A stretch of DNA of 64,000 bases from a virus (taxonomy: Duplodnaviria > Heunggongvirae > Uroviricota > Caudoviricetes): the IMG/VR virus record IMGVR_UViG_2681813233_000007; one strand, given 5' to 3'. A model generated the notes under the pieces. The model saw only the letters and a list, made by a program, of their open reading frames with translations. It was not told where the DNA came from and made no database searches. Below are positions 240-32,980 of this stretch, in pieces. The translations under genes and the position numbers were made by a program. Every line of letters begins with the position of its first letter. Within the stretch, counting starts at the first letter, position 1.

Positions 240-815
240 ATGTTAATGGCGAACGATAACGCATATGCAGAAGAAGATCTCATTTTGAGTGACTTCATAG
301 GGAAGCGGGAACGCTGGACCCAAAAGCGAGAGGAACTTTACGCCTCATTAGTTCGCAAAGGCGTCAATATCGAAACCGCACAGAGCGGCGATATGACAGT
401 GGTAAGCGTTGGATTGCACGGTGTAAGCGTGTCAGCAATCAATCATGAGCCATACGTTGCGTTATCCGAGTCAATGGTAAGGTTAGTTAAGTTCCTGAAG
501 TACACAGAAGCGAATAATGTAATCATTGGCAAAAAGAATATCCCTTTTTCCTCGGCTTTTTACTGGATGATGAAAGGGCTTGATGCCCGGCGGACATCAT
601 GGCCTAAAGGGAGCTATATATCGATGTTCCGTGGCAGCATTGGCAGCAAAGAAAAGCTCTTCGAATTCTTGCCGGAAGAGGCATTCGATATTGTGGAAGG
701 GTGCGATGTGATGGTGATGCCTCGCCTGGTAATGATGAATGGGGATTTACAGGCGCAGACAGACTGGTTTGCAACTGGTGTGGATATTATCGCGACTGAC
801 TGGGAGGCTTTCTGA
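240..815 (+). CDS. hypothetical protein with C-terminal DUF2829-like (Tad2-like) domain
   Basis: ORF track; AAGGAG RBS before ATG; C-terminal motifs FYWMMKGLDARRTSWPKG ... IIATDWEAF shared with 8462..9163 and 24787..25728. Confidence 0.55.
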   Translation: MLMANDNAYAEEDLILSDFIGKRERWTQKREELYASLVRKGVNIETAQSGDMTVVSVGLHGVSVSAINHEPYVALSESMVRLVKFLKYTEANNVIIGKKNIPFSSAFYWMMKGLDARRTSWPKGSYISMFRGSIGSKEKLFEFLPEEAFDIVEGCDVMVMPRLVMMNGDLQAQTDWFATGVDIIATDWEAF

Positions 816-3069: not shown

Positions 3070-4577
3070 TGGCTGGAGGGCGCAAGATTAAATGCGTCAC
3101 CAGCGATCCACGCTGGCGCGATATGGTAATCAAATACCGCTACAACTTTACCCAGGCTGTTGTCGATATTTTTGGGATGTTCCCCTCCCACCAGCAGCAG
3201 CAGATCATTCAGTCCGTGCAGGAAACGGGGAGTAGGACGACCGTCACGTCCGGACACGGAACGGGGAAGTCGTCCCTTACCGCGATGTTGCTGTTGATTT
3301 TCATGATCCTGTTCCCCGATGCCCGTGTCATCATTGTTGCTAACAAGATAGGCCAGGTAAAAACAGGCGTATTCAAATACGTTAAACAGTATTGGGCGAA
3401 TGCAGTTAAGCGTCATGGGTGGTTGCAGACCTATTTTGTCCTCTCTGACACCATGTTTTATGAGCGCTCCCGTAAGGGGATTTGGGAAGTTCTCTGCAAA
3501 GGTTATCGACTCGGCAACGAAGAAGCGCTGGCGGGGGAACACGCGGCACATTTGCTTCTAATTCTGGATGAAGCATCTGGTATATCTGATAAGGCGATCG
3601 GCGTAATGACCGGTGCTCTTACTGAAGAAGATAACCGGATGTTGATGCTATCCCAGCCAACAAGGCCAAGTGGTTATTTTTACGATTCGCACCATTCTCA
3701 AGCAAAAACCCCAGACAACCCGAAAGGGATCTGGACAGCAATTGTTCTTAACTCGGAAGAATCACCGTTCGTCACACCACAATTCATCAAGCAGAAGCTT
3801 CTGGAATATGGGGGGCGCGATTCTATTGAGTACATGGTCAAGGTGCTTGGTCAGTTCCCACGAGAAATTAACGGCTATTTGCTTGGTCGTGATGAATGCG
3901 ATCGCGCTGCTCGCCGCAAGGTGCTGTTGGAGAAAAACTGGGGATGGGTGGCAACGGCTGACGTTGGTAATGGGCGAGATAAGTCGGTCCTCAACATCTG
4001 CAAGGTATCTGGTCACAGGGATAAGCGGCGCGTTGTTAACTTTAAGGTAATGGAGATGCCTGGCACTATGGACCCATTGGCCTTTGCTGACTTCATATAT
4101 AACGAATGTACGCCGGAAAAATACCCGAATATAACAATCGCGGTTGATGCTGATGGTTTTGGTTCTGATACGTGTGCGCAGTTGGTGCGTCGTGGTGCGA
4201 ACCCGGTACGTATTCGGTGGGGAAAACCCATGTTTGCGAACAAAGACAGGGAGCGATTTGTTAATCAGCGTGCCTACGCAAATATTATGGCGCGAGATGC
4301 CATAAAGTCAGGGCGTATGCGGATAGACAGTGACCCTAAAACGGCAGAGCAAGCGTCAAAAATCCCCTTTTTACTGAATGAAGAAGGGAAAATGGCGATG
4401 ATGCGCAAAGAGCACATGCGGCAAAAGCTAAACATCAAATCGCCTGACCGATGGGATACCTACTGCTTCACTATGCTGGTGGACTATGTGCCTGCTAATG
4501 AAGATATTGGTGCCGAAATGGCAACTTTCCGAGATCAGGTTCTGGCGGATATCGAAATGCCGGATCTGGATATATAA
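3069..4577 (+). CDS. pacB: terminase large subunit PacB-like
   Basis: Walker A SGHGTGKS, Walker B LLLILDEA, C-terminal nuclease-like region; coupled to pacA. Confidence 0.9.
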   Translation: MAGGRKIKCVTSDPRWRDMVIKYRYNFTQAVVDIFGMFPSHQQQQIIQSVQETGSRTTVTSGHGTGKSSLTAMLLLIFMILFPDARVIIVANKIGQVKTGVFKYVKQYWANAVKRHGWLQTYFVLSDTMFYERSRKGIWEVLCKGYRLGNEEALAGEHAAHLLLILDEASGISDKAIGVMTGALTEEDNRMLMLSQPTRPSGYFYDSHHSQAKTPDNPKGIWTAIVLNSEESPFVTPQFIKQKLLEYGGRDSIEYMVKVLGQFPREINGYLLGRDECDRAARRKVLLEKNWGWVATADVGNGRDKSVLNICKVSGHRDKRRVVNFKVMEMPGTMDPLAFADFIYNECTPEKYPNITIAVDADGFGSDTCAQLVRRGANPVRIRWGKPMFANKDRERFVNQRAYANIMARDAIKSGRMRIDSDPKTAEQASKIPFLLNEEGKMAMMRKEHMRQKLNIKSPDRWDTYCFTMLVDYVPANEDIGAEMATFRDQVLADIEMPDLDI

Positions 4578-4604
4578 AGCCCCGCGATGCGGGGCCGGTT
4601 GTGA

Positions 4605-5642
4605 TTACCAGAGCTTCGCGGCGTACTGCGTTTGGGGGAATGTGTATCCGTAACGTTCTTCGATTGCTTTGCCGTATTTTTTACGAGCTTCATTCAGTTT
4701 AATGCCGGTCAGGTCGTCTCCAGAGGCCATCATTACGTCTAACAATTCCAGATCCATTTTATCCAGCCTTGCCATTGCTTCACGTGATGTACGTATCTTA
4801 CGTTCAATGATATGGCGAATAGCCGGATCGGCATCCTCCAGCATCTTAGCGGATTTCTGCTTAAGGCTTTCATTGCGAATATCGATGTTCCTTAAGATGT
4901 ACGACTTCGCAACGTAGCTTGGCTGGTGTTTTTCCAGGTCACGAACACGATATAAGTTAAAATCGCCGAGAAGGCTGCAAGGTACCGATTCGACGCCAGA
5001 ATAAATTGTAATGCTCCGGCGTTCACCAACATTATTGACAACGGGGATCGTTGTCTTCGGTAGTCTTGCGAAAACCAATGCGCCATGTGCGCCAACTCTA
5101 AAGCGAGAAAGGGCATTGCTGCCTTCGATGTTTGTTGTCAGCACAACATCTGTATATGCCTCTTTACGCGCCCGGTAGATCTCGCCTTCAGGCTCAGCTT
5201 CAAAGAAGCGCTGTTCTTCTTCAAGAGCACCTACGATTTGAGAAAAAACCCTATTTTTCAGGCTTTTCTTTATGATTTTGTCGTATTTTTTTAGCAATTG
5301 TTCACGTGTAAATGTACGTGTTGTTGTAGCGCTTTGCACAACGACATGCGTGCTTTGATTGGTGTCCTCAATGATGAATGGGATCGGAGAATATACAGAC
5401 TCAACAATGTTCGACGCTTTGCCGTCGGCATCGCGGCACATGTCAACGAAGGCTTTCCATTCAGCAAGACATTTTTCAGCTTCTTCTAATATGTTTTGGT
5501 CATGCGTTAATGCAACATGGCGGAATTCCTCGCCAGCATAACTGGTATCATGGAAAACAGAGTTTGCGACCACCAGCTCTTTCCACCGTTCAGCGGTTTG
5601 CAGGAACCGTTTGTACTCTTTCTCGATCGACTTCTTACTCAT
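4605..5642 (-). CDS. hypothetical protein in the c1 position (candidate immunity repressor)
   Basis: Divergent from the recombinase gene, between pacB and the rox site as c1 is in P1; operator-like box TTTTCTAACA 20 bp upstream of its start; no sequence-level confirmation. Confidence 0.4.
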   Translation of the reverse strand: MSKKSIEKEYKRFLQTAERWKELVVANSVFHDTSYAGEEFRHVALTHDQNILEEAEKCLAEWKAFVDMCRDADGKASNIVESVYSPIPFIIEDTNQSTHVVVQSATTTRTFTREQLLKKYDKIIKKSLKNRVFSQIVGALEEEQRFFEAEPEGEIYRARKEAYTDVVLTTNIEGSNALSRFRVGAHGALVFARLPKTTIPVVNNVGERRSITIYSGVESVPCSLLGDFNLYRVRDLEKHQPSYVAKSYILRNIDIRNESLKQKSAKMLEDADPAIRHIIERKIRTSREAMARLDKMDLELLDVMMASGDDLTGIKLNEARKKYGKAIEERYGYTFPQTQYAAKLW

Positions 5643-11070: not shown

Positions 11071-11100
11071 AAGCCCGCCTGGTTGAGCGGGCTTCTTTTC
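11071..11100. terminator. hairpin between convergent genes
   Basis: AAGCCCGC-loop-GCGGGCTT followed by CTTTTC. Confidence 0.45.
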
Positions 11101-11479
11101 AAATATTGGAACCATATAGTTCACGTAGTTTTTCCGCTACTGAAGATACGGGGATTTCACCAGTTGCAGCCCCCACCGCAAGTTCCACCAGCACGGGAGA
11201 ATCATATACCTGTATACCGTTACGGCGTAGAAATAGCAGCGCACTGTTTAGCGCGGTACGCTTATTGGCATCATTGAATATATGCCCTCTCGCAGTAGCC
11301 ACCAGGTAGGTTGCGGAGACTTCGAAAAGGTCGGTGATCTCTTCGTAGGCAACTCTGGCCTGAACTCTCCCGATAATGGCCTCTGCCCTACCCGGATCTG
11401 ACATTCCCGGCAGGCCGCCGTAGCGGCTTATATTCGCATCATGAAGCGCAATAAGTTCTTCCGGTGATATATGCCTCAT
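11099..11479 (-). CDS. doc: Doc toxin (Fic-fold kinase) of phd-doc addiction module
   Basis: 126 aa, near-identical to P1 Doc as recalled ([39 protein letters not shown]...). Confidence 0.95.
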
Positions 11480-11700
11480 TATCGGTTAACCAGTTCCTTG
11501 TTGGTGGAGTCCAGGGTGTCAAACAGGGATGCAAATTCAGCATCCAGCGCCGCCTTTTTGTAGGCTTCGAAAGTAGCCTTGCTGACAATTACTGCTGGTT
11601 CACGGCCTCTGCGGGTGATTTCAACCTCTTCCCCGGCTTCAACATTGTTGAGCAATTCAGAAAGGTTGCCGCGCGCGGTACGGAAGTTAATGGACTGCAT
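11479..11700 (-). CDS. phd: Phd antitoxin
   Basis: [15 protein letters not shown]...; start taken at third codon of the track ORF to match the 73-aa Phd; stop overlaps doc start. Confidence 0.9.
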
Positions 11701-11772
11701 AAACACCTCGTGTACTCGTTATGTGTACACAATCATAAACTTCACAGGCATAAAGCACCAGCACTTTGCAGC

Positions 11773-25758: not shown

Positions 25759-26208
25759 AACTACTAAATAACCGGATTCTCCGCACGATGAAGAAAATAG
25801 ATTTCACTTACTCTGCTGCCACAATCCAGCGACGTTTCAGTCTCATAAGGGAAGTGGAACTATCAAAAAACTGGTATCAAATTCTACTGGATGAAGAGTT
25901 TTCACTGATGGTTATAGCATAAAAATTGGCTATGCCGAATGACCGGCACAAGGTCATAGCCAGCCTGGATCTGGTGACAAACAGATACTGGGAATCCGAG
26001 GAACTACTTGAAGTTGGCTTGATACGCGAGATGATAGAACAGGCTGTTCCCCTCCACTTACAGCAACCATAATTGAAAGGTCTTAACGATAGTCTGCCAC
26101 GAATAGTTACTTTCACTGCCTAAAGTTATTTAATTGCATTACAAAGTGTAAATTAGTAACATTAGAATCTCACACAGCACTATAACTATATGTTTTTTAT
26201 GTAAAAGG

Positions 26209-26568
26209 ATGATAATCGTGGCTACTAAAATTAAACTTGAAAACCCTCAAACTGGCGAATCAATCACCGGTTTTTATGGTTTTTCCTGGACTACATTCTT
26301 GTTTGGTGCTTTTCCAGCTTTGTTCAGGAAAGACTTTATAACTTTTATTGGGGTATTCGTAGTGATGCTGATACTGGCATTCCTCACAGCCGGAATTGGC
26401 CCGTGGATTGCCTCATTTATCTGGGCGTTCATGTATAATAAATATTTCACCGTAAATAAGATAAAACAAGGCTTCATTTTTGCTGGTTCTCACACAGAAA
26501 ATGAGTTGGCTGCTAGCAAGCTAGGATTGTCATTAAATCAAAACAACTGCAAAACTATTACCGAGTAA
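26209..26568 (+). CDS. small membrane protein (2 TM helices)
   Basis: ORF track; AT-rich; GTG start 6 nt in is possible. Confidence 0.5.
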   Translation: MIIVATKIKLENPQTGESITGFYGFSWTTFLFGAFPALFRKDFITFIGVFVVMLILAFLTAGIGPWIASFIWAFMYNKYFTVNKIKQGFIFAGSHTENELAASKLGLSLNQNNCKTITE

Positions 26569-26608
26569 TAGCCAAAAAGCAGGCTTAATAGTAAGCCTGC
26601 TATGTCAA

Positions 26609-27493
26609 TCACGAATCTCTCTGACAATTCAGAAACATAAACGCCCGCTTGTCTGTTAAATCCGTAACATAATACTCTCTCATGCCTGTAGGTTTTATTC
26701 TACGAGCATATACAAACTTATGAACTGGTTGTTTTTCCCCATAACTTACATCAGTCCTAAATTCATCAACCACGCTACCATCTTTTTCGACTTCCTTCCT
26801 CACCAGCTTATTTTCTAATGCTGGCTTTAATTCGTCCATGCCACTAAAAGCATCCTGGCCTGTACTATTGCCTCGATTTCCGCGCGGCAAATCCCAGGAG
26901 AAATAAGTGCCATAGTCAGTAATCACACGATCCCAGACTCCGGTATCCCCCATATAGTTAGAGCGCTTTCCATTGTAGGTTACAGCCACTTTACAGGAGT
27001 ACGTTTCTTCATTCCCTCCAGCCTTAGTCGCTGTGGTTGCAGGGATATTTTGGATAGATGCGCTTACGTCATCTTGCGTTAATTCCTCAACTGGAGCAAA
27101 TTCATATATGGGTGTGCCGAGGCTATTTAAATATAACTTATATCTAACCCTAAGCGCACTTCCATCTGAGAATTCATACGTTCCCAGGCATTGGAGCTTA
27201 TTTTTTTCTCTTATCTCATTGATCTGATTATAAGCATCAATTACAGAGATTGCTTCCTGATCGTCCTTCAGCAGTTCATTATAATCATCAATTAACATCT
27301 GTCTGGTTTTAGGGGCATTGCAGTCAATTTTGCTAAAATCATAAGCAAAGGCAAATGTGGGAACAGAGAGAGCAACAACAGTAGCAAGTATTGTTGAGGA
27401 ACATCTTTTTCCATTTTTTATAAAAAACATTTCATTAACTCCATACTTTACCATCTTAGCCGCGAGCGCGGTCCCTAAAACCATTAACTTCAC
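26609..27493 (-). CDS. secreted protein of unknown function (AT-rich gene)
   Basis: Signal peptide MFFIKNGKRCSSTILATVVALSVPTFAFA (true start probably 27430). Confidence 0.5.
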   Translation of the reverse strand: MKLMVLGTALAAKMVKYGVNEMFFIKNGKRCSSTILATVVALSVPTFAFAYDFSKIDCNAPKTRQMLIDDYNELLKDDQEAISVIDAYNQINEIREKNKLQCLGTYEFSDGSALRVRYKLYLNSLGTPIYEFAPVEELTQDDVSASIQNIPATTATKAGGNEETYSCKVAVTYNGKRSNYMGDTGVWDRVITDYGTYFSWDLPRGNRGNSTGQDAFSGMDELKPALENKLVRKEVEKDGSVVDEFRTDVSYGEKQPVHKFVYARRIKPTGMREYYVTDLTDKRAFMFLNCQRDS

Positions 27494-27724
27494 TGCACCG
27501 TTCCTTCATGCAATCAAAATGACTTTTATGTTATAAAAATAATCAGCCAAATCAACATGATTTAGGCCAAATTTCTGTCAAAAAATAAAATCCACAAAAA
27601 GTGGTTGACACTATTTTGGAAATCACAAACTGCACATAATCCATCGCGCTAACGGCTCCCGTTGAAGGTTCTTTTGACGATTAACTTTCAGCCGAAGCGC
27701 GGTAGGGAGTCATAACGCCAAAGC

Positions 27725-27776: not shown

Positions 27777-28430
27777 ATGGAAAAGATCGCAATATTCAGC
27801 CTGACCACCAGCAAGCCTCAAATGCTCACTGCAATACTGAAAGACGGTGCTCTCATTATTAACGAAGTAAAACCCCTTCCCGCGTCAGCATTGGAGCAAA
27901 AGCAAAAAATTCCTCCAGCTATAGCAGCCCTGCGGAAAAGCAAATTTAAGGTACTGGTAGACGAAATTACGCCAACGATCTCCGCTGGCACCGGAGCAAG
28001 CCAGGTGACTCTCAAGACCCGTCATGCCGATGGCAGAGCAGCAATCATCGTCGGGATGGAGAGATACAGAGAGTTAAAACTCCAGAAGCTATTATCCCTG
28101 CCGCAAAATAACAAAGGTGCTTTCGAAATCCCCGACTCCATCGTTGACACCGAATACAACGGTAACGGAGAAGAAGTCTACCGGGTGAACTGGCAGGATA
28201 TCAGGCCGGAACATATTCTGATGATCCTGTGTTGCTACGCGACCGTATACCACAACGTTGCCAGTGCAGATTACGTAGAGCAGATGACCGGTACAGTCGA
28301 GAAAGAGCAAAAAACAGGCATACTCGCTTCGTTCCTTTCCATTATTGGGCATGAAAAAGTTAAAGCAGGCACCTCCCAGCCAAAGTCACTGGCCGGGAAA
28401 GAAGTTGATGAAGATACCGTGATACTTTGA
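27777..28430 (+). CDS. hypothetical protein
   Basis: Start moved to ATG 27777 with GGAGGAAGGA RBS. Confidence 0.5.
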   Translation: MEKIAIFSLTTSKPQMLTAILKDGALIINEVKPLPASALEQKQKIPPAIAALRKSKFKVLVDEITPTISAGTGASQVTLKTRHADGRAAIIVGMERYRELKLQKLLSLPQNNKGAFEIPDSIVDTEYNGNGEEVYRVNWQDIRPEHILMILCCYATVYHNVASADYVEQMTGTVEKEQKTGILASFLSIIGHEKVKAGTSQPKSLAGKEVDEDTVIL

Positions 28431-28565
28431 TCACATTAGTAGCTTTGTTAACTCCCTCAATACCAGGTAGAAGAGTAACAAAAATATTGACGCAAGTATT
28501 TGCGTGGTCAATGAGGCGTTCATAAACAGATCAATAAGCTTTAACAATTCTAGAATAACATCCAT
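28431..28565 (-). CDS. candidate small hydrophobic peptide (44 aa)
   Basis: Own translation MDVILELLKLIDLFMNASLTTQILASIFLLLFYLVLRELTKLLM; GGAG 8 nt upstream; in a 330-bp gap. Confidence 0.3.
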   Translation of the reverse strand: MDVILELLKLIDLFMNASLTTQILASIFLLLFYLVLRELTKLLM

Positions 28566-28758
28566 GTCATTCACTCCGTTTAATTTTTAATCTAATGCCA
28601 GCAAATGAAGCTGGCCCCCGCATAAAGATTAATGAAAGTCACTTGTCACCAGTGAGGGGATTTATGAACCACATCCCCCTGAACTGGTGGCCTGTCTGTT
28701 TCTCGCATTTCACACCCTGCATACAGTTTCCCCCAGGTTATGACTGAGAGGCTTTGTT

Positions 28759-29088
28759 ATGGGCTATAGCAGACTCGACGATAGGTACATTGAAGACGAT
28801 ATTTTTCGTGCGCTGTTTCACCAGGAAATGATTAAGCGGGTATCGGAGTATCACTCTGATAATTTCCAGTACACGATAAAGATTGATGAAGTATATCGTT
28901 CAGACCTTGCAGCCTACAGGGCGTATGGCAATGCAGATTTGCGCTGGGTATTCCGGGTGCTGGTGGGCCATGAGTCAGAAATGGAAGAAATGCCCGCAGG
29001 GACCACGTTAACTCTTCCTGATGTGGCATGGCTGAGGAACAAGATCCGTGATTACGCAAGCGCGAAACCGGAGATAGAAAATGCCTGA
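28759..29088 (+). CDS. hypothetical protein
   Basis: ORF track; 8-nt overlap with next gene. Confidence 0.5.
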   Translation: MGYSRLDDRYIEDDIFRALFHQEMIKRVSEYHSDNFQYTIKIDEVYRSDLAAYRAYGNADLRWVFRVLVGHESEMEEMPAGTTLTLPDVAWLRNKIRDYASAKPEIENA

Positions 29089-30274
29089 TTTCCTGAAAAA
29101 CCAGGACGGGCGCTATATCACTGACGGCCTGTCCTCTAAGGACTTCACGCGTTTATTCGACCTTATCAGGAAAGAACAAACCCGTAAGCGCCGACAAGCT
29201 CACCGGACGCTGACGCCAGGTAGACTGAGGAACAAATCCGCCGAAGATATTCTCAAGTTAGGGAAGAAAAAAGGCGGCACGTTCTTCACGCGAGACGACC
29301 TGAAAGGTTTCGAAAAGCTACGGAGTAAAACGCGCGAAAAATATGACAGCAAGACGGCTGGCATCACATACGCCCAGCTGGTGGCATCCAGCCAGGCAAT
29401 CGATATTAAGCGTGCAAATAACGCCGTGGATGACGGATCTGGTATCAAAAGAGCTACACCCGTATCTCTTCGCCACAATGTGATTAATATCCGCGTAGAA
29501 GCATCGGATATATCCGTCCACCAGCACCATATCGTCCGGATACGCTTTGAAGAATGGGATCAGATGGTTGATGACATCGCAGAAGACGATAAATCAGCTC
29601 TCAAAATCACTAAATCACTGTGCGCCGGGCGAGTGTCTTTCGATTGTGACTGTGGTCGTCATCAATACTGGTATCGTTACATCGCCACTGCGGGTAACTT
29701 TGCCCTGGCACCGCCAAAAGAATACGCCTATCCAAAAGTTCGCAACCCGAAGCTGCAAGGCGTCGCCTGTAAACACGTGATCCACTCAATGACGCGGTTA
29801 CAGTCCGCCAGTTGGCAAATGAGTATTGCTCGTGCGCTACAAAAGGCTGCAACGCAAATTGCATTTGGTGACGATCGCCGCCGTACAACTAAACACTTCT
29901 CAAAAGAAGACGAGAAGGAGTTTAATCGCAATCGTAGCAGTAAAACGAACGTTGAAGCCGCCAAACGCGAATGGAGGCTCTATCAGAAGCGCCAGGCAGC
30001 TTTAAGTACAAAACTGGCAAAGGACAACGGCAAGATCGACAAACTACGTGACCAATTGACCAAGGCCAGAAAGTTGTCAGATGCACAGAAAAAACGGGCG
30101 GCAGCAAAAGAAGCGGCCTTGCAACGTGAGAAACAGAAAAACAAGGAGCTTCAGCAACGCCTTGCCGATCAGTTCGCACTGAAGAAGCAGGCGTTCATTG
30201 ATGCGCTTGTCATGGCTGGAACACCACCAGCACAAGCTGAAAAAATGTTCATGGAGTATGTAAAAAAAGCATAA
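29081..30274 (+). CDS. SWIM zinc-finger protein with basic coiled-coil C-terminus
   Basis: CxC...CxH pattern SFDCDCGRHQYWYRY...ACKHVIH. Confidence 0.55.
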   Translation: MPDFLKNQDGRYITDGLSSKDFTRLFDLIRKEQTRKRRQAHRTLTPGRLRNKSAEDILKLGKKKGGTFFTRDDLKGFEKLRSKTREKYDSKTAGITYAQLVASSQAIDIKRANNAVDDGSGIKRATPVSLRHNVINIRVEASDISVHQHHIVRIRFEEWDQMVDDIAEDDKSALKITKSLCAGRVSFDCDCGRHQYWYRYIATAGNFALAPPKEYAYPKVRNPKLQGVACKHVIHSMTRLQSASWQMSIARALQKAATQIAFGDDRRRTTKHFSKEDEKEFNRNRSSKTNVEAAKREWRLYQKRQAALSTKLAKDNGKIDKLRDQLTKARKLSDAQKKRAAAKEAALQREKQKNKELQQRLADQFALKKQAFIDALVMAGTPPAQAEKMFMEYVKKA

Positions 30275-30307
30275 ACCACACATAGCCTAGTAGTTTATGC
30301 TGGGCTT

Positions 30308-31036
30308 TCATTTTTTTGAAAGATCAACTCCAGTATTATCAAACAAACTGGAAATATCAGACACCAATTTATTAAAATGCTTGTCATCATTATAGAATGA
30401 TGTGCTTTTTATAGCGACTATAAAATCACATAAATCTTGCGGAGATTCAATGCTAACCCCCTTATTTTTATATAGTTCAATAATACTGCCAACATCAGTA
30501 TGCAATAGTTTTATCGCGCCACAAATTTCTCGCTGTTTCGTAACCAAGTCATTAAGTTTATTTTCATTTTCATCTAAGATTTGTTTTGAATATTTAGCGT
30601 CATTGGTTGCTTGATTTAACTTTGTTTTCTTTCTTTGCAATTCTATTCTTTTATCATAATCAGCAACTTCATCTAAATATCTTATTTCAGTGTATAATTT
30701 ACTTGTTAGCTTAGATATCGTCAGTGTGAGAATAGGAGCTAATACAGATGCAAATACTCCATAAATAAATGGGATTACAACGTGACAAACCCACGGGGGT
30801 ACAATCCAATTATCAAAGAACGGTACATTACCACCAACAAAAACAATAGATAATGTATATAGGATGTCGTCCTTTGACTTTAATATAATTAAAATATCCT
30901 TCCAGTTAAGGATTAGAAAAGAAATGACAACATATGCAAAAACCTTGTTAAATATTTTATCTTTTATTATTTCAGAAAATGATTTTAGTTCTGTTTCATT
31001 TATAGACGAATTATCTTTAACTTTTTCTGACATCAT
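30308..31036 (-). CDS. membrane protein of unknown function (AT-rich; Abi/exclusion candidate)
   Basis: Two N-terminal TM helices then Lys/Asn-rich coiled-coil; strongly AT-rich codons. Confidence 0.55.
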   Translation of the reverse strand: MMSEKVKDNSSINETELKSFSEIIKDKIFNKVFAYVVISFLILNWKDILIILKSKDDILYTLSIVFVGGNVPFFDNWIVPPWVCHVVIPFIYGVFASVLAPILTLTISKLTSKLYTEIRYLDEVADYDKRIELQRKKTKLNQATNDAKYSKQILDENENKLNDLVTKQREICGAIKLLHTDVGSIIELYKNKGVSIESPQDLCDFIVAIKSTSFYNDDKHFNKLVSDISSLFDNTGVDLSKK

Positions 31037-31057
31037 AGCTTATCCTGATTACTTTTA

Positions 31058-31258
31058 TTATGGATAGTTAAAAGATTCAACAGGTGATGGTGGCTGAATT
31101 GGGTAATGTTTCTTCTCGTACTCCTCAATGAGAAGACTCATAACCTCAAAGAAATCACCTTCCGGAGTATTCATTTCCGGTTCGTTATCGAACATCGGTT
31201 CGACCGCACGCAGTGCGGCCTCATAATCTTGTTCTGTACGGATAGGTTTAATGTTCAT
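31058..31258 (-). CDS. small ORF resembling the N-terminal domain of long HigA-type antitoxins (no HTH)
   Basis: IKPIRTEQDYEAALRAVEPMF...EGDFFEVMSLLIEEYEKKHYPI. Confidence 0.35.
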   Translation of the reverse strand: MNIKPIRTEQDYEAALRAVEPMFDNEPEMNTPEGDFFEVMSLLIEEYEKKHYPIQPPSPVESFNYP

Positions 31259-31314
31259 TAATTACAAAGGAAAGCCCACTTGCTAAGTGGGCTTTTTGTA
31301 TGTGTTTTACTATA

Positions 31315-31653
31315 TCAGGCTGCTTTTTTATTCAGGTTCCGCTGAGAAATAAATTTTTCAGCAGTATTGATACGACTTAACTCTTCCTGAACGCGCATAT
31401 CATTTTCGACTTCCCACAGATCTACTGCGGTCTGAAGATTAATCCAAAAATCTACAGAAGTATCGAATGCTTTTGCCAGGCGATATGCCATATCCATCGT
31501 TAGCTTACGATTATTATTAACAAGAGCACTTACGGTGTTACGATGAACATGAAGTATTTCTGCTAACTCGTTGATCTTCAGCTCTAACGGCTCCAGGTAT
31601 TCGTACAGCAGGATATCACCTACGGTCGTCGGTTTTCTGGTTGCCTGTTTCAT
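31315..31653 (-). CDS. higA: HigA antitoxin (XRE-family HTH)
   Basis: HTH core ELAEILHVHRNTVSALVNNNRKLTMDMAYRLAKAFDTSVDFWINLQ; downstream of higB. Confidence 0.8.
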   Translation of the reverse strand: MKQATRKPTTVGDILLYEYLEPLELKINELAEILHVHRNTVSALVNNNRKLTMDMAYRLAKAFDTSVDFWINLQTAVDLWEVENDMRVQEELSRINTAEKFISQRNLNKKAA

Positions 31654-31723
31654 TTTTTGCCCTTACTAGCGTGCGTATTAAGTGGACTCTGGTCAGAACC
31701 CGGTCCGTAACCGGGTATCTGTT

Positions 31724-32026
31724 TTAGTATTTGTGAGGGTCGAGATACAAGTCCTCGGCCTTTCCGTTAACCCACTTAAAAATTAACCTATATTGCTTAT
31801 TCACCCTTACTGATGAATAGCCATTTAGCTTCCCTGACAGTTCCTCATACCGATTACCTGGTGGTGATCTTAAATCCTTACAGGTAGTTGCGGCATTGAT
31901 AATGTCCAACTTCCGTGACAATGTCATATGAATATCAGGAGGTATCTTTCTATGTGGTGTTGAAAATTCAAAAAAATCATCAAGCCACGCATCCCTGAAA
32001 TCCTTTATGTTAATTTTTTTGGTCAT
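31724..32026 (-). CDS. higB: HigB toxin (RelE/ParE superfamily)
   Basis: SPPGNRYEELSGKLNGYSSVRVNKQYRLIFKWVNG...DPHKY. Confidence 0.8.
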   Translation of the reverse strand: MTKKINIKDFRDAWLDDFFEFSTPHRKIPPDIHMTLSRKLDIINAATTCKDLRSPPGNRYEELSGKLNGYSSVRVNKQYRLIFKWVNGKAEDLYLDPHKY

Positions 32027-32176
32027 TAGTCATTTGATCCTCCGTGATGATTACCGAATGCCATAACTATAGCGCACCGTTGCACTGTGCGCAAGTGCAT
32101 TTTATGAATTCCCCCTCCTTCATCCAAAATCACAATCTCCCGAAAATCTTCCTTTCGATACCTGACAGATCGACCT

Positions 32177-32980
32177 TTGAGGATGCTTATGGGCCGTTTT
32201 GACGAATGGTTTGCTGACGATGCAAACCTGGCAAGTAAGGAGTCAGAACATGACAGCACGCAGAGAGAAACGCCAGCGCCGATTGAAGCGAATGCAGGAG
32301 GCGCGCCGGAACATGGCAATACCGGTTCGGATTCATTCAGCATTCTGGAAGAGCAACCCGCCGCCAAAGCTGATAGCCATGATAATTTTGCTGATAGCAA
32401 CGGTGGCCTTACTCCGGATGCTGGCGAATCAGATATAGCCATACTTCCATCTTCCCTGGCTGGCAGAGAACCGACTCCACAGTTAAAAGCACGCTATAAC
32501 GGGCATAAAGCCTTTAACGACCAAATCCGCGCAGACTGGATGCTGATTATTGAATCCAGCCCAGACGCGTTTCAGGCTCTCTTATATCGACCAGATGTTG
32601 GCACATATGGGGTAGTCAGCGACGAAACAGGAGAAGAGTCATTCACTGAACTGGATAACAACCAACGCGAACTGACTTACCAGGAACCTGAAATCGTTTA
32701 TGTGCTGGATAACCCTGACGGGCGTGACTCTTTCCATGCGATTGACGCAGACGGTGAGCAGGATGGCTTAACCGATGATGTTCTGATTCTGCGTATTGCA
32801 GCAAATAACGTCCCCGTCGGCTCAATTCTTGAATGGAATGAAGAGATGGTAAACGGCGTAGCGCGCCGCTGGTGGTACGTGCACCGTATTTTTAGCTACG
32901 GCACACAGCATGTTGGTTCGCTTTACTACTGCATACCTGCCAGGAATTTTGATACGACTCAAAACGGAGTGATCGAATGA
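32177..32980 (+). CDS. hypothetical acidic protein
   Basis: ORF track; first gene of a 4-gene plus-strand operon. Confidence 0.5.
   Translation: MRMLMGRFDEWFADDANLASKESEHDSTQRETPAPIEANAGGAPEHGNTGSDSFSILEEQPAAKADSHDNFADSNGGLTPDAGESDIAILPSSLAGREPTPQLKARYNGHKAFNDQIRADWMLIIESSPDAFQALLYRPDVGTYGVVSDETGEESFTELDNNQRELTYQEPEIVYVLDNPDGRDSFHAIDADGEQDGLTDDVLILRIAANNVPVGSILEWNEEMVNGVARRWWYVHRIFSYGTQHVGSLYYCIPARNFDTTQNGVIE

Follow-up and report, generated by a model that had tools for sequence, protein, structure and literature searches.

A variable slot in a D6-like phage-plasmid of Escherichia coli probably holds three independent modules: a higBA cassette, a decayed antitoxin gene, and a lone membrane protein gene

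The minus-strand region between the homologues of P1 gene 25 and gene 7 in the window (the whole 64,000-nucleotide stretch of viral DNA analyzed here) is probably a mosaic accessory slot that holds three independent modules, namely, a higBA toxin-antitoxin (TA) pair, the dead remnant of another antitoxin, and a lone membrane protein gene of the moron type. The element is a D6-like phage-plasmid of E. coli, in which this slot is variable and lies among the tail genes; NZ_CP067430 and NZ_AP018804 are examples of plasmids of the window type. The ORF list of the window contains four ORFs here, at the positions and on the strand reported in the first-pass annotation, and all four are backed by homology and are not chance ORFs. 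The region was compared with ~35 sibling loci; an alignment-based search of genome contigs returned one locus only. Gene identities, breakpoints, distribution, and module independence were established directly from these data, and the transcription boundaries among the following features are inferred ones.

30284..30306, no strand assigned: hairpin between the convergent membrane protein gene and gene 25 homologue
30308..31036, minus strand: gene for a 242-aa predicted protein with two transmembrane segments and a coiled coil, an allele from a hypervariable family of phage morons
31037..31081, minus strand: junction sequence (multiple alignment; BLAST breakpoints 31077 and 30967)
31058..31258, minus strand: probable pseudogene, N-terminal half (toxin binding and dimerization) of a K-12-type HigA
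31271..31295, minus strand: terminator-like hairpin of 11 pairs that closes the higBA cassette
31315..31653, minus strand: higA, helix-turn-helix (HTH) antitoxin of 112 aa (TIGR02607, E = 7.9e-30)
31724..32026, minus strand: higB, toxin of the RelE superfamily, 100 aa (PF05015, E = 4.4e-35)
32027..32126, minus strand: presumed higBA promoter/operator in the intergenic region that separates higB from the divergent gene 7 homologue, with an inverted repeat (palindrome at 32081 to 32099)
31266..32126, minus strand: 861-bp cassette (promoter region, higB, higA, and terminator) that appears to have replaced a K-12-type toxin gene and its promoter

HigB toxins of the RelE superfamily are ribosome-dependent mRNA endonucleases. 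The HigB of the window matches PF05015 over profile positions 1 to 91 of 91 (120.5 bits; cut-off, 27) and phrog_3066, described as "toxin of TA system" (E = 3.7e-37), and it is identical across all 10 window-type loci. HigA scores 102.5 bits against the equivalog model TIGR02607 (cut-off, 47.7), carries an HTH_3 domain at residues 16 to 70 (E = 7e-11), and is encoded by a gene with a dN/dS ratio of 0.12. Since higB precedes higA on the minus strand and both family matches exceed the curated cut-offs, the toxin-first pair proposed earlier stands. A GC-rich hairpin lies in the 70 nt between the two genes, and the cassette has its own terminator. The limits of the cassette were taken from the points at which the homology between sibling locus L004 and D6 breaks (3766/3767 and 4627/4628 in the D6 locus, L001) and were transferred to the window with an offset of 27499, the cassette being 99.7% identical between D6 and the window. 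The intergenic region upstream of higB probably serves as its promoter/operator.

Toxin-first order and an HTH antitoxin are features shared with known HigBA systems, and the plasmid location fits post-segregational killing; judged by sequence, nothing essential seems to be different. The higBA of D6 has already been regarded as a post-segregational killing system (PMC6799933). The higBA of the window is probably likewise an intact, self-contained addiction module, in which HigA would neutralize HigB and presumably auto-repress at the palindromic promoter region, with the hairpin ending the unit. A phd-doc pair is also present elsewhere in the window, and together the two modules would stabilize the plasmid via post-segregational killing.

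The ORF of 66 aa that follows is probably a pseudogene, left over from a second, now dead TA that belongs to another family, and is likely to be without expression. Its codons 1 to 59 are near-identical to their homologues in D6 orf72, which encodes a 119-aa HTH antitoxin and is present in full length at the same locus position, whereas codons 60 to 66 and the stop codon come from the junction sequence. The HTH_3 domain of D6 orf72 occupies residues 63 to 115, and the ORF in the window ends at codon 66; neither a search of the window nor the multiple alignment revealed an HTH-coding remnant downstream. RefSeq also marks the ORF as a pseudogene ("incomplete; missing C-terminus"). The earlier view that this ORF corresponds only to the N-terminal domain of long HigA-type antitoxins is thus borne out by the match of codons 1 to 59 to orf72, with the qualification that the family is the K-12 HigA type and is different from that of the HigA in the adjacent pair. 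D6 orf72 aligns to residues 24 to 132 of E. coli K-12 HigA (5IFG_B; E = 8.7e-8), and orf72 and the toxin found next to it in sibling loci are homologues of E. coli K-12 HigB-HigA and Salmonella SehAB (PDB 5IFG and 5YCL; E about 1e-7). As in K-12 HigA and SehB, an N-terminal toxin-binding and dimerization domain precedes the C-terminal HTH in orf72. Compared with these systems, the window retains codons 1 to 59, and the HTH, the cognate toxin, the promoter, and the ribosome-binding site are gone.

The sibling loci reveal how this state may have arisen. A K-12-type higB lies directly upstream of the K-12-type higA in eight of them (L003, L004, L006, L023, L025, L026, L029, and L030), and the 100-aa toxin of L004 matches K-12 HigB (5IFG_A; E about 1e-7). 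The cognate toxin was found neither in the window nor in a whole sibling plasmid, and its location elsewhere on the replicon was rejected on these grounds. The suggestion of a second, decayed TA is therefore upheld: only half of a K-12-type higA, the 5' one, is present, and the cognate higB is kept in siblings and lost in the window. At the ancestral locus, a K-12-type higB would have preceded, with translational coupling, the K-12-type higA for a 119-aa antitoxin (D6 orf72). In the lineage of D6 and the window, the higBA cassette would then have taken the place of the toxin gene and the toxin promoter, its left breakpoint falling 7 nt before the antitoxin ATG, and the antitoxin would have been left with no toxin partner and with neither a promoter nor a ribosome-binding site. 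Through a further recombination or deletion event, the HTH half and the terminator would have been lost and the present membrane protein allele acquired in place of the old one. Orphaning followed by loss of the HTH half accounts for the pseudogene assignment of the 66-aa ORF.

The junction sequence has no counterpart in D6, L003, L004, or L005 and stands in place of the HTH half of orf72, the orf72 terminator, and the old intergenic region. It supplies the membrane protein gene with a ribosome-binding site (AGGA), and the truncated form of the remnant is strictly linked to one membrane protein allele. A simple internal deletion of orf72 was rejected, since the 45 bp past the breakpoint and the whole membrane protein gene differ from D6 (73.5% nucleotide identity), which argues for the import of another allele block. 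A weak similarity that is left between the residues VESFNYP and IEAIKFR, as judged by eye, hints that the donor might have had a diverged 3' part of orf72 that was deleted later.

In the loci compared, decay was seen only in antitoxin genes that have lost their toxin. All eight toxin-linked copies of orf72 are intact and have a GGAG ribosome-binding site within the 3' end of the toxin gene, whereas the orphan copies, including the 66-aa ORF, begin 13 nt past the hairpin at 31271 to 31295, which is also found in D6 and in all orphan copies, and have no Shine-Dalgarno sequence before their start codons. At least four independent disruptions have occurred, all in orphan lineages and none in toxin-linked copies: (i) the window-type replacement after codon 59, (ii) a +1 frameshift at codon 53 (L027), (iii) a CAG-to-TAG change at codon 69 (L022), and (iv) an IS3 insertion within the remnant (L032). 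The N-terminal domain was spared in three of the four. The ratio of synonymous to nonsynonymous changes in this domain is 7:7 in orphan copies and 18:6 in toxin-linked copies, a difference that is estimated to be nonsignificant and leans toward relaxation.

The spared N-terminal domain could also be read as a functional, HTH-less anti-addiction decoy, expressed at a low level and binding the K-12-type HigB of sibling plasmids or related host toxins, so that the carrier would escape post-segregational killing or abortive infection when sibling plasmids, presumably incompatible, compete. Chromosomal ccd, which protects against the ccd of the F plasmid, is an example of anti-addiction, and anti-addiction and orphan antitoxins are likewise toxin-less antitoxins beside the TA traffic of mobile elements. 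In K-12-type HigA and SehB, the N-terminal domain carries the surfaces for toxin interaction and dimerization (PMC7160566), the cognate toxin circulates at the very same locus in sibling plasmids, and at least 1,000 contigs contain an intact 66-aa ORF; moreover, three independent events (at codons 53, 59/60, and 69) removed the HTH and left the N-terminal domain each time. However, the clustering of these three events was recognized only after the fact and could equally come from chance decay, and the wide occurrence can reflect hitchhiking with a plasmid lineage that has been successful. The start codon follows a terminator-like hairpin at a distance of 13 nt, the GGAG ribosome-binding site is lost, an IS3 insertion inside the remnant is tolerated, and the variable sites within the lineage, only three in number (two synonymous and one nonsynonymous), give no sign of constraint. 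These apparent signs of decay (lost expression signals and repeated disruptions) set the remnant apart from anti-addiction modules, and we regard the decoy function as improbable. The broader proposal that the remnant is kept as a decoy against the K-12-type HigB of competing D6-like phage-plasmids and that the membrane protein represents a new single-gene exclusion family has a similarly slim chance. Were it true, one phage-plasmid could displace another without killing the host, and the exclusion family would be one whose accessory slots are shared by D6-like, P2-like, and lambdoid phages.

The first-pass annotation had also suggested that three or four of the genes could form a unit whose membrane protein is an effector controlled by the antitoxin. 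Such a unit, in which a toxic membrane effector would be held in check by HigA and/or the orf72-type antitoxin through transcription or binding, would resemble a tripartite TA or a defense system such as PD-lambda-2, a three-gene antiphage system (Vassallo et al. 2022, PMC9519451). All the genes share one strand and are separated by short gaps, and the sibling toxin and orf72 match PD-Lambda-2_A (E = 1e-41) and positions 1 to 119 of the 402 positions of PD-Lambda-2_B (E = 4e-43), respectively. The 66-aa ORF itself matches PADLOC PD-Lambda-2_B only over positions 1 to 65 of 402 (E = 2.5e-16), as well as positions 1 to 63 of phrog_1373. Membership in PD-lambda-2 on the basis of this match was rejected because the peptidase domain and the A and C components are missing: orf72 is without the peptidase of PD-Lambda-2_B, the HigB of the window gave no PADLOC match (only the sibling toxin matches PD-Lambda-2_A), and no membrane protein allele matches PD-Lambda-2_C or any other PADLOC model. 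In PD-lambda-2, component A is a HigB-like protein of the K-12 type and component B joins a HigA-like HTH to a C-terminal peptidase; the system also has a third component, which is P4-antitoxin-like and required for defense and of which no counterpart was found in the window.

In every D6-like element that has it, the membrane protein gene lies directly 3' of a K-12-type higA, and this order is found even in the divergent backbone of L028 and L033, which has a different HigBA variant; the constancy of the order leaves some small room for a functional link within D6-like elements. However, the TA and the membrane protein gene also occur separately: L004 and L006 have the TA without the membrane protein gene, and in three other genomic contexts (P2-like prophages, a lambdoid prophage, and an Enterobacter chromosome) no TA accompanies the membrane protein gene. 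This gene is also kept, unchanged, whether the upstream antitoxin is intact, truncated, frameshifted, interrupted by a stop codon, or split by an IS element. Terminator-like hairpins separate the modules, and in D6 and L028 such a hairpin lies between the antitoxin gene and the membrane protein gene; the D6 terminator ahead of the membrane protein gene is gone in the window. No consensus promoter for the membrane protein gene was found in the window, and the number of promoter-like sites (8, compared with 6.0 ± 2.5 in shuffled controls) is not in excess and is uninformative about the transcription of this gene. Finally, the nucleotide identity between the window and D6 is 99.7% in the higBA region and 73.5% in the block with the membrane protein gene, which indicates separate evolutionary histories of the modules. 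Taken with the distribution of the genes, this makes a single three- or four-gene unit highly improbable.

The comparison with ~35 sibling loci instead resolves the putative four-gene unit into what are probably a live TA pair, an antitoxin pseudogene, and a moron unrelated to them, and it is a warning for annotation that same-strand neighbors in the accessory slots of phages are not necessarily operons. The locus also provides a case, at the level of breakpoints, of TA cassette replacement in which an addiction module appears to have displaced only the toxin gene of another module and in which the orphaned antitoxin decays repeatedly.

The third module, the 242-aa predicted membrane protein, is probably a stand-alone moron product with a cytoplasmic coiled coil. 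The gene is AT-rich, as described earlier: its GC content is 29 to 33%, compared with about 48 to 50% in the flanks. The predicted membrane protein has two hydrophobic segments, at about residues 32 to 52 and 82 to 107, in which two 19-residue windows exceed 1.9 on the Kyte-Doolittle scale and helices are predicted. The gene is on the strand opposite to that of the structural genes and is separable, being an accessory gene in a variable slot of a temperate phage that is present in some siblings and absent from others, such as the TA-bearing L004 and L006. Its alleles, of which there are at least four, share 37 to 57% amino acid identity on backbones that are otherwise 98 to 100% identical. Within an allele group, the dN/dS ratio is 0.34, compared with 0.09 to 0.12 for the neighboring genes, showing a live gene that evolves faster than its neighbors.

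The family is small, with 43 representatives, none of them annotated, among 1.84 billion proteins. Lone homologues were found in a lambdoid prophage, an Enterobacter chromosome, and P2-like prophages; in the P2-like prophages, the gene lies between gpR/gpS and gpV, a position that is taken here to be Z/fun. The Z/fun locus among the P2 tail genes is a recognized accessory and defense hotspot (PMC13586616). Searches for a function of the 242-aa protein in Pfam, NCBIfam, PADLOC, and PHROGs, by PDB profile search, and with Foldseek (BFVD and PDB) returned nothing significant; with a pTM of 0.33 (pLDDT, 76.6), the AF2 model would in any event give only weak fold matches. The top PDB matches, which were nonsignificant (E above 5), were two-transmembrane potassium channels. 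A channel filter was considered and rejected, as the "FVGG" stretch is not conserved in the family.

HK97 gp15, T4 Imm, P22 SieA, and the P2 fun(Z) locus are examples of exclusion by single-gene membrane morons. The protein encoded in the window resembles HK97 gp15, T4 Imm, and P22 SieA in being a small predicted inner membrane protein whose gene is lone, low in GC, variable, and located in an accessory slot among the tail genes, but no similarity to these or to the P2 fun(Z) product was detectable in sequence or in fold. The predicted long cytoplasmic coiled coil and small C-terminal helical domain set it apart. It may be a prophage-encoded exclusion or defense factor that acts at the inner membrane against incoming phages.

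A role outside defense and exclusion, as an accessory of morphogenesis or lysis or as a selfish passenger that has no phenotype and was placed here by chance, seems to us the less probable reading, though one to be taken seriously. It would agree with the lack of any match to defense models or known exclusion proteins, with the location among tail and baseplate genes in both D6-like and P2-like elements, and with the dispensability of the gene, which carries a frameshift in 2 of 23 viral loci and is missing from L004. On the other side, the opposite strand, the much lower GC content, and the absence from some fully equipped siblings are hallmarks of morons and not of core morphogenesis genes, and the extreme allele diversity on near-identical backbones is accompanied by purifying selection within alleles, a combination that is typical of conflict genes. 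The position identified as Z/fun in P2, a known hotspot of accessory and defense genes, points in the same direction. The family, which occupies slots in three types of temperate phages, is a reasonable candidate for a phage exclusion or defense screen.

The window belongs to an E. coli D6-like phage-plasmid; its 2-kb region of interest has 100% identity to plasmids of about 93 kb, among them NZ_CP067430 and NZ_AP018804, and phage D6 matches most of it. The first-pass annotation had described four ORFs on one strand, and the coordinates and family matches confirm this arrangement. The four lie on the minus strand between the homologues of P1 genes 25 and 7.

Genes of the locus and the second toxin-antitoxin (TA) module of the plasmid (window coordinates)
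11099-11706, minus strand, phd-doc addiction module (TIGR01550, E = 3.7e-35; TIGR01552, E = 6.8e-13)
29081-30274, plus strand, homologue of P1 gene 25
30308-31036, minus strand, 242-aa ORF (membrane gene)
31058-31258, minus strand, 66-aa ORF
31315-31653, minus strand, higA (TIGR02607, E = 7.9e-30, and HTH_3)
31724-32026, minus strand, higB (PF05015, E = 4.4e-35)
32177-32980, plus strand, homologue of P1 gene 7

The 66-aa ORF matched only positions 1 to 65 of the 402-position PADLOC model PD-Lambda-2_B. At the same place, D6 carries orf72, which encodes a 119-aa protein with a helix-turn-helix (HTH) at residues 63 to 115. Between 32250 and 31077, the window shares 99.7% identity with D6, across higB, higA, and codons 1 to 59 of the small ORF, and the two diverge below 31077, where 45 bp of unrelated sequence in the window stand in for the HTH half of orf72, the conserved hairpin and T-run that follow it, and the intergenic region. 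The membrane genes of the two share 73.5% nucleotide and 57% amino acid identity. The orf72 product is homologous to E. coli K-12 HigA (PDB 5IFG_B, E = 8.7e-8); its family, antitoxins of about 119 aa, is very large in Enterobacterales. By sequence comparison, the 66-aa ORF is the front half of an antitoxin of another family than the adjacent HigA.

In eight loci drawn from sibling plasmids and IMG/VR contigs (L003, L004, L006, L023, L025, L026, L029, and L030), the gene in the same slot encodes a 100-aa toxin and directly precedes an intact orf72; the two genes are 3 nt apart, and a GGAG ribosome-binding site lies within the 3' end of the toxin gene. The sibling toxin matched E. coli K-12 HigB (5IFG_A, E = 1.1e-7) and also PD-Lambda-2_A (E = 1e-41). 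BLAST comparison of the L004 locus (sibling plasmid CP099081) with the D6 locus placed an 861-bp segment (window 31266-32126), comprising the promoter region, higB, higA, and a hairpin, where L004 has 383 bp with the K-12-type toxin gene and its promoter; the left breakpoint is 7 nt upstream of the orf72 ATG. An older TA, of another family, has thus lost its toxin gene to the present higBA, which left the antitoxin an orphan. A K-12-type HigB is encoded neither within the window nor anywhere on another, 92.9-kb sibling plasmid, where the sole further TA is phd-doc. The earlier suggestion of a decayed second TA therefore holds; its partner toxin can now be named, as can the breakpoints and the order of events. 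L004 also has an additional RelE/ParE-HigA pair at 307-878, just upstream of the homologue of gene 26 (baseplate); the matching part of the window (about 28430-28760) holds small ORFs only, making this a second variable TA slot ~2 kb away.

The higBA of D6 has already been treated as an addiction module (PMC6799933). As judged from its family, higBA would be a self-regulated addiction module acting beside phd-doc, and the sequence signals suggest that its transcripts end at the hairpin. The spacer between higB and higA is unusually long (70 nt; 31654-31723) and contains a GC-rich 7-pair hairpin at 31698-31716, which might act in RNA processing or attenuation within the operon. Between higB and the divergent gene 7 homologue, positions 32081-32099 form an inverted repeat, TGCACTGTGCGCAAGTGCA (plus strand), a candidate operator for HigA that would overlap the promoter.

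In every orphan copy of the orf72-type gene, the ATG lies 13 nt past an 11-pair terminator-like hairpin (31295..31271), and all orphan copies lack a Shine-Dalgarno sequence, suggesting that the remnant would have no productive expression. All eight toxin-linked copies are intact. The orphan lineages have been hit four times independently: by replacement after codon 59 (window type), by a +1 frameshift at codon 53 (L027), by a CAG>TAG change at codon 69 together with several amino acid changes (L022), and by insertion of an IS3 into the remnant (NZ_CP134379). The truncation is strictly tied to one membrane-gene allele, being found in the window and nine complete window-type IMG/VR loci (L008 to L015 and L021) and with none of the other alleles in the compared loci, which indicates a single event. 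The truncated form is common: 50 of 5,426 complete E. coli genomes have it, each time on a plasmid, and the exact 66-aa peptide occurs on at least 1000 contigs.

The remnant might instead work as a decoy without an HTH, directed at the K-12-type HigB that competing sibling plasmids encode, since in this HigA family the toxin is bound by the N-domain (PMC7160566), which three of the disruptions spared. We consider this unlikely, as the remnant has lost its expression signals, tolerates an IS insertion, and shows no detectable constraint. Synonymous-to-nonsynonymous counts were 18:6 (N-domain) and 27:3 (HTH half) in toxin-linked copies, indicating clear purifying selection, and 7:7 and 18:3, respectively, in full-length orphan copies; the remnant has only three variable sites (two synonymous, one nonsynonymous), so substitution patterns add little. 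The TA parts are of known kinds and already annotated, including the RefSeq pseudogene label on the remnant ('helix-turn-helix domain-containing protein; incomplete; missing C-terminus'); some novelty lies solely in the uncharacterized, hypervariable membrane protein family.

The 242-aa gene has a GC content of 29 to 33%, versus about 48 to 50% in its flanks, and its product has two hydrophobic segments. It was previously proposed, as one of two options, to be an antitoxin-controlled effector in a three- or four-gene unit, which would resemble PD-lambda-2 (PMC9519451). In D6-like elements, the gene does constantly follow a K-12-type higA, also in two of divergent backbone with a different HigBA variant (L028 and L033), a position for which conserved synteny of the slot is the better explanation. 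Such a unit is very improbable, because PD-lambda-2 has a peptidase domain and a C component, both absent from this locus, and because the membrane gene is separable from TA genes. K-12-type TAs occur without it (L004 and L006), terminator-like hairpins lie between it and the antitoxin gene in D6 and L028, and its distant homologues in P2-like, lambdoid, and Enterobacter loci have no TA neighbor. Homologue P0024, seen on at least 24 contigs, lies by itself on the opposite strand between gpR/gpS and gpV of P2-like prophages (L036 to L038, 4001-4651), P0022 lies between replication and nin-region genes of a lambdoid prophage (L035, 4001-4666), and P0013 is a solitary gene in the chromosome of an Enterobacter (L007, 3953-4636). 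The gene itself is frameshifted in an A-rich coiled-coil region in the IMG/VR loci L024 (about 3889-4634) and L029 (about 4001-4700), which could reflect real pseudogenization or homopolymer sequencing error. The gene is thus a moron in its own right, and the three modules of the locus, higBA, the antitoxin remnant, and the membrane gene, are separable and have different histories. The P0024 slot is presumably the orf30/fun(Z) position on the P2 map. The Z/fun locus within the tail genes has been listed as an accessory/defense hotspot (PMC13586616).

No match to the membrane protein was found in Pfam, NCBIfam, PADLOC, or PDB, the matching PHROGs families carry no known function, and an exhaustive profile search of 1.84 billion proteins yielded only 43 representatives. 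The AF2 model (pLDDT, 76.6; pTM, 0.33) has an N-terminal helix, a hydrophobic helix, a short helix with a hairpin, a second hydrophobic helix that extends as a very long helix up to residue 192, and a small helical C-terminal domain. Foldseek gave nothing significant against BFVD and PDB. The best nonsignificant PDB matches (E above 5) were 2-TM potassium channels, e.g., KcsA and NaK, with a similar layout of TM1, short helix, loop, TM2, and cytoplasmic helix; the family has no conserved filter-like motif.

D6-like elements carry at least five allele groups of the membrane gene, which share only 37 to 57% amino acid identity with one another (window, L001 [D6], L003, L005, and L017 to L030); at the same loci, the flanking tail genes are mostly 96 to 100% identical and the adjacent antitoxin 93 to 99%. 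Such a distribution is suggestive of cassettes being exchanged at a conflict locus. The dN/dS ratio of the window-type allele group is 0.34, versus 0.09 to 0.12 in neighboring genes, indicating that the membrane gene is live and relatively fast evolving. From its context, the chances are roughly even that the product is a prophage-encoded inner-membrane exclusion or defense factor, in which case its allele turnover would be a mark of conflict with other phages; the chief competing reading is that of a passenger or accessory protein without such a role.

Two other ORFs were noted in the window. The ORF at 240-815 (plus strand; 191 aa), which had no match in an NCBIfam scan, is the putative equivalent, of the same length, of NZ_AP018804 2309-2884, labeled 'Thoeris anti-defense Tad2 family protein' in RefSeq. 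An AT-rich ORF of 294 aa (26609-27493, minus strand; 34 to 40% GC), also without an NCBIfam match, lies on the opposite strand in a low-GC stretch (about 25800-27600), has a signal-peptide-like N terminus, and may be another moron.
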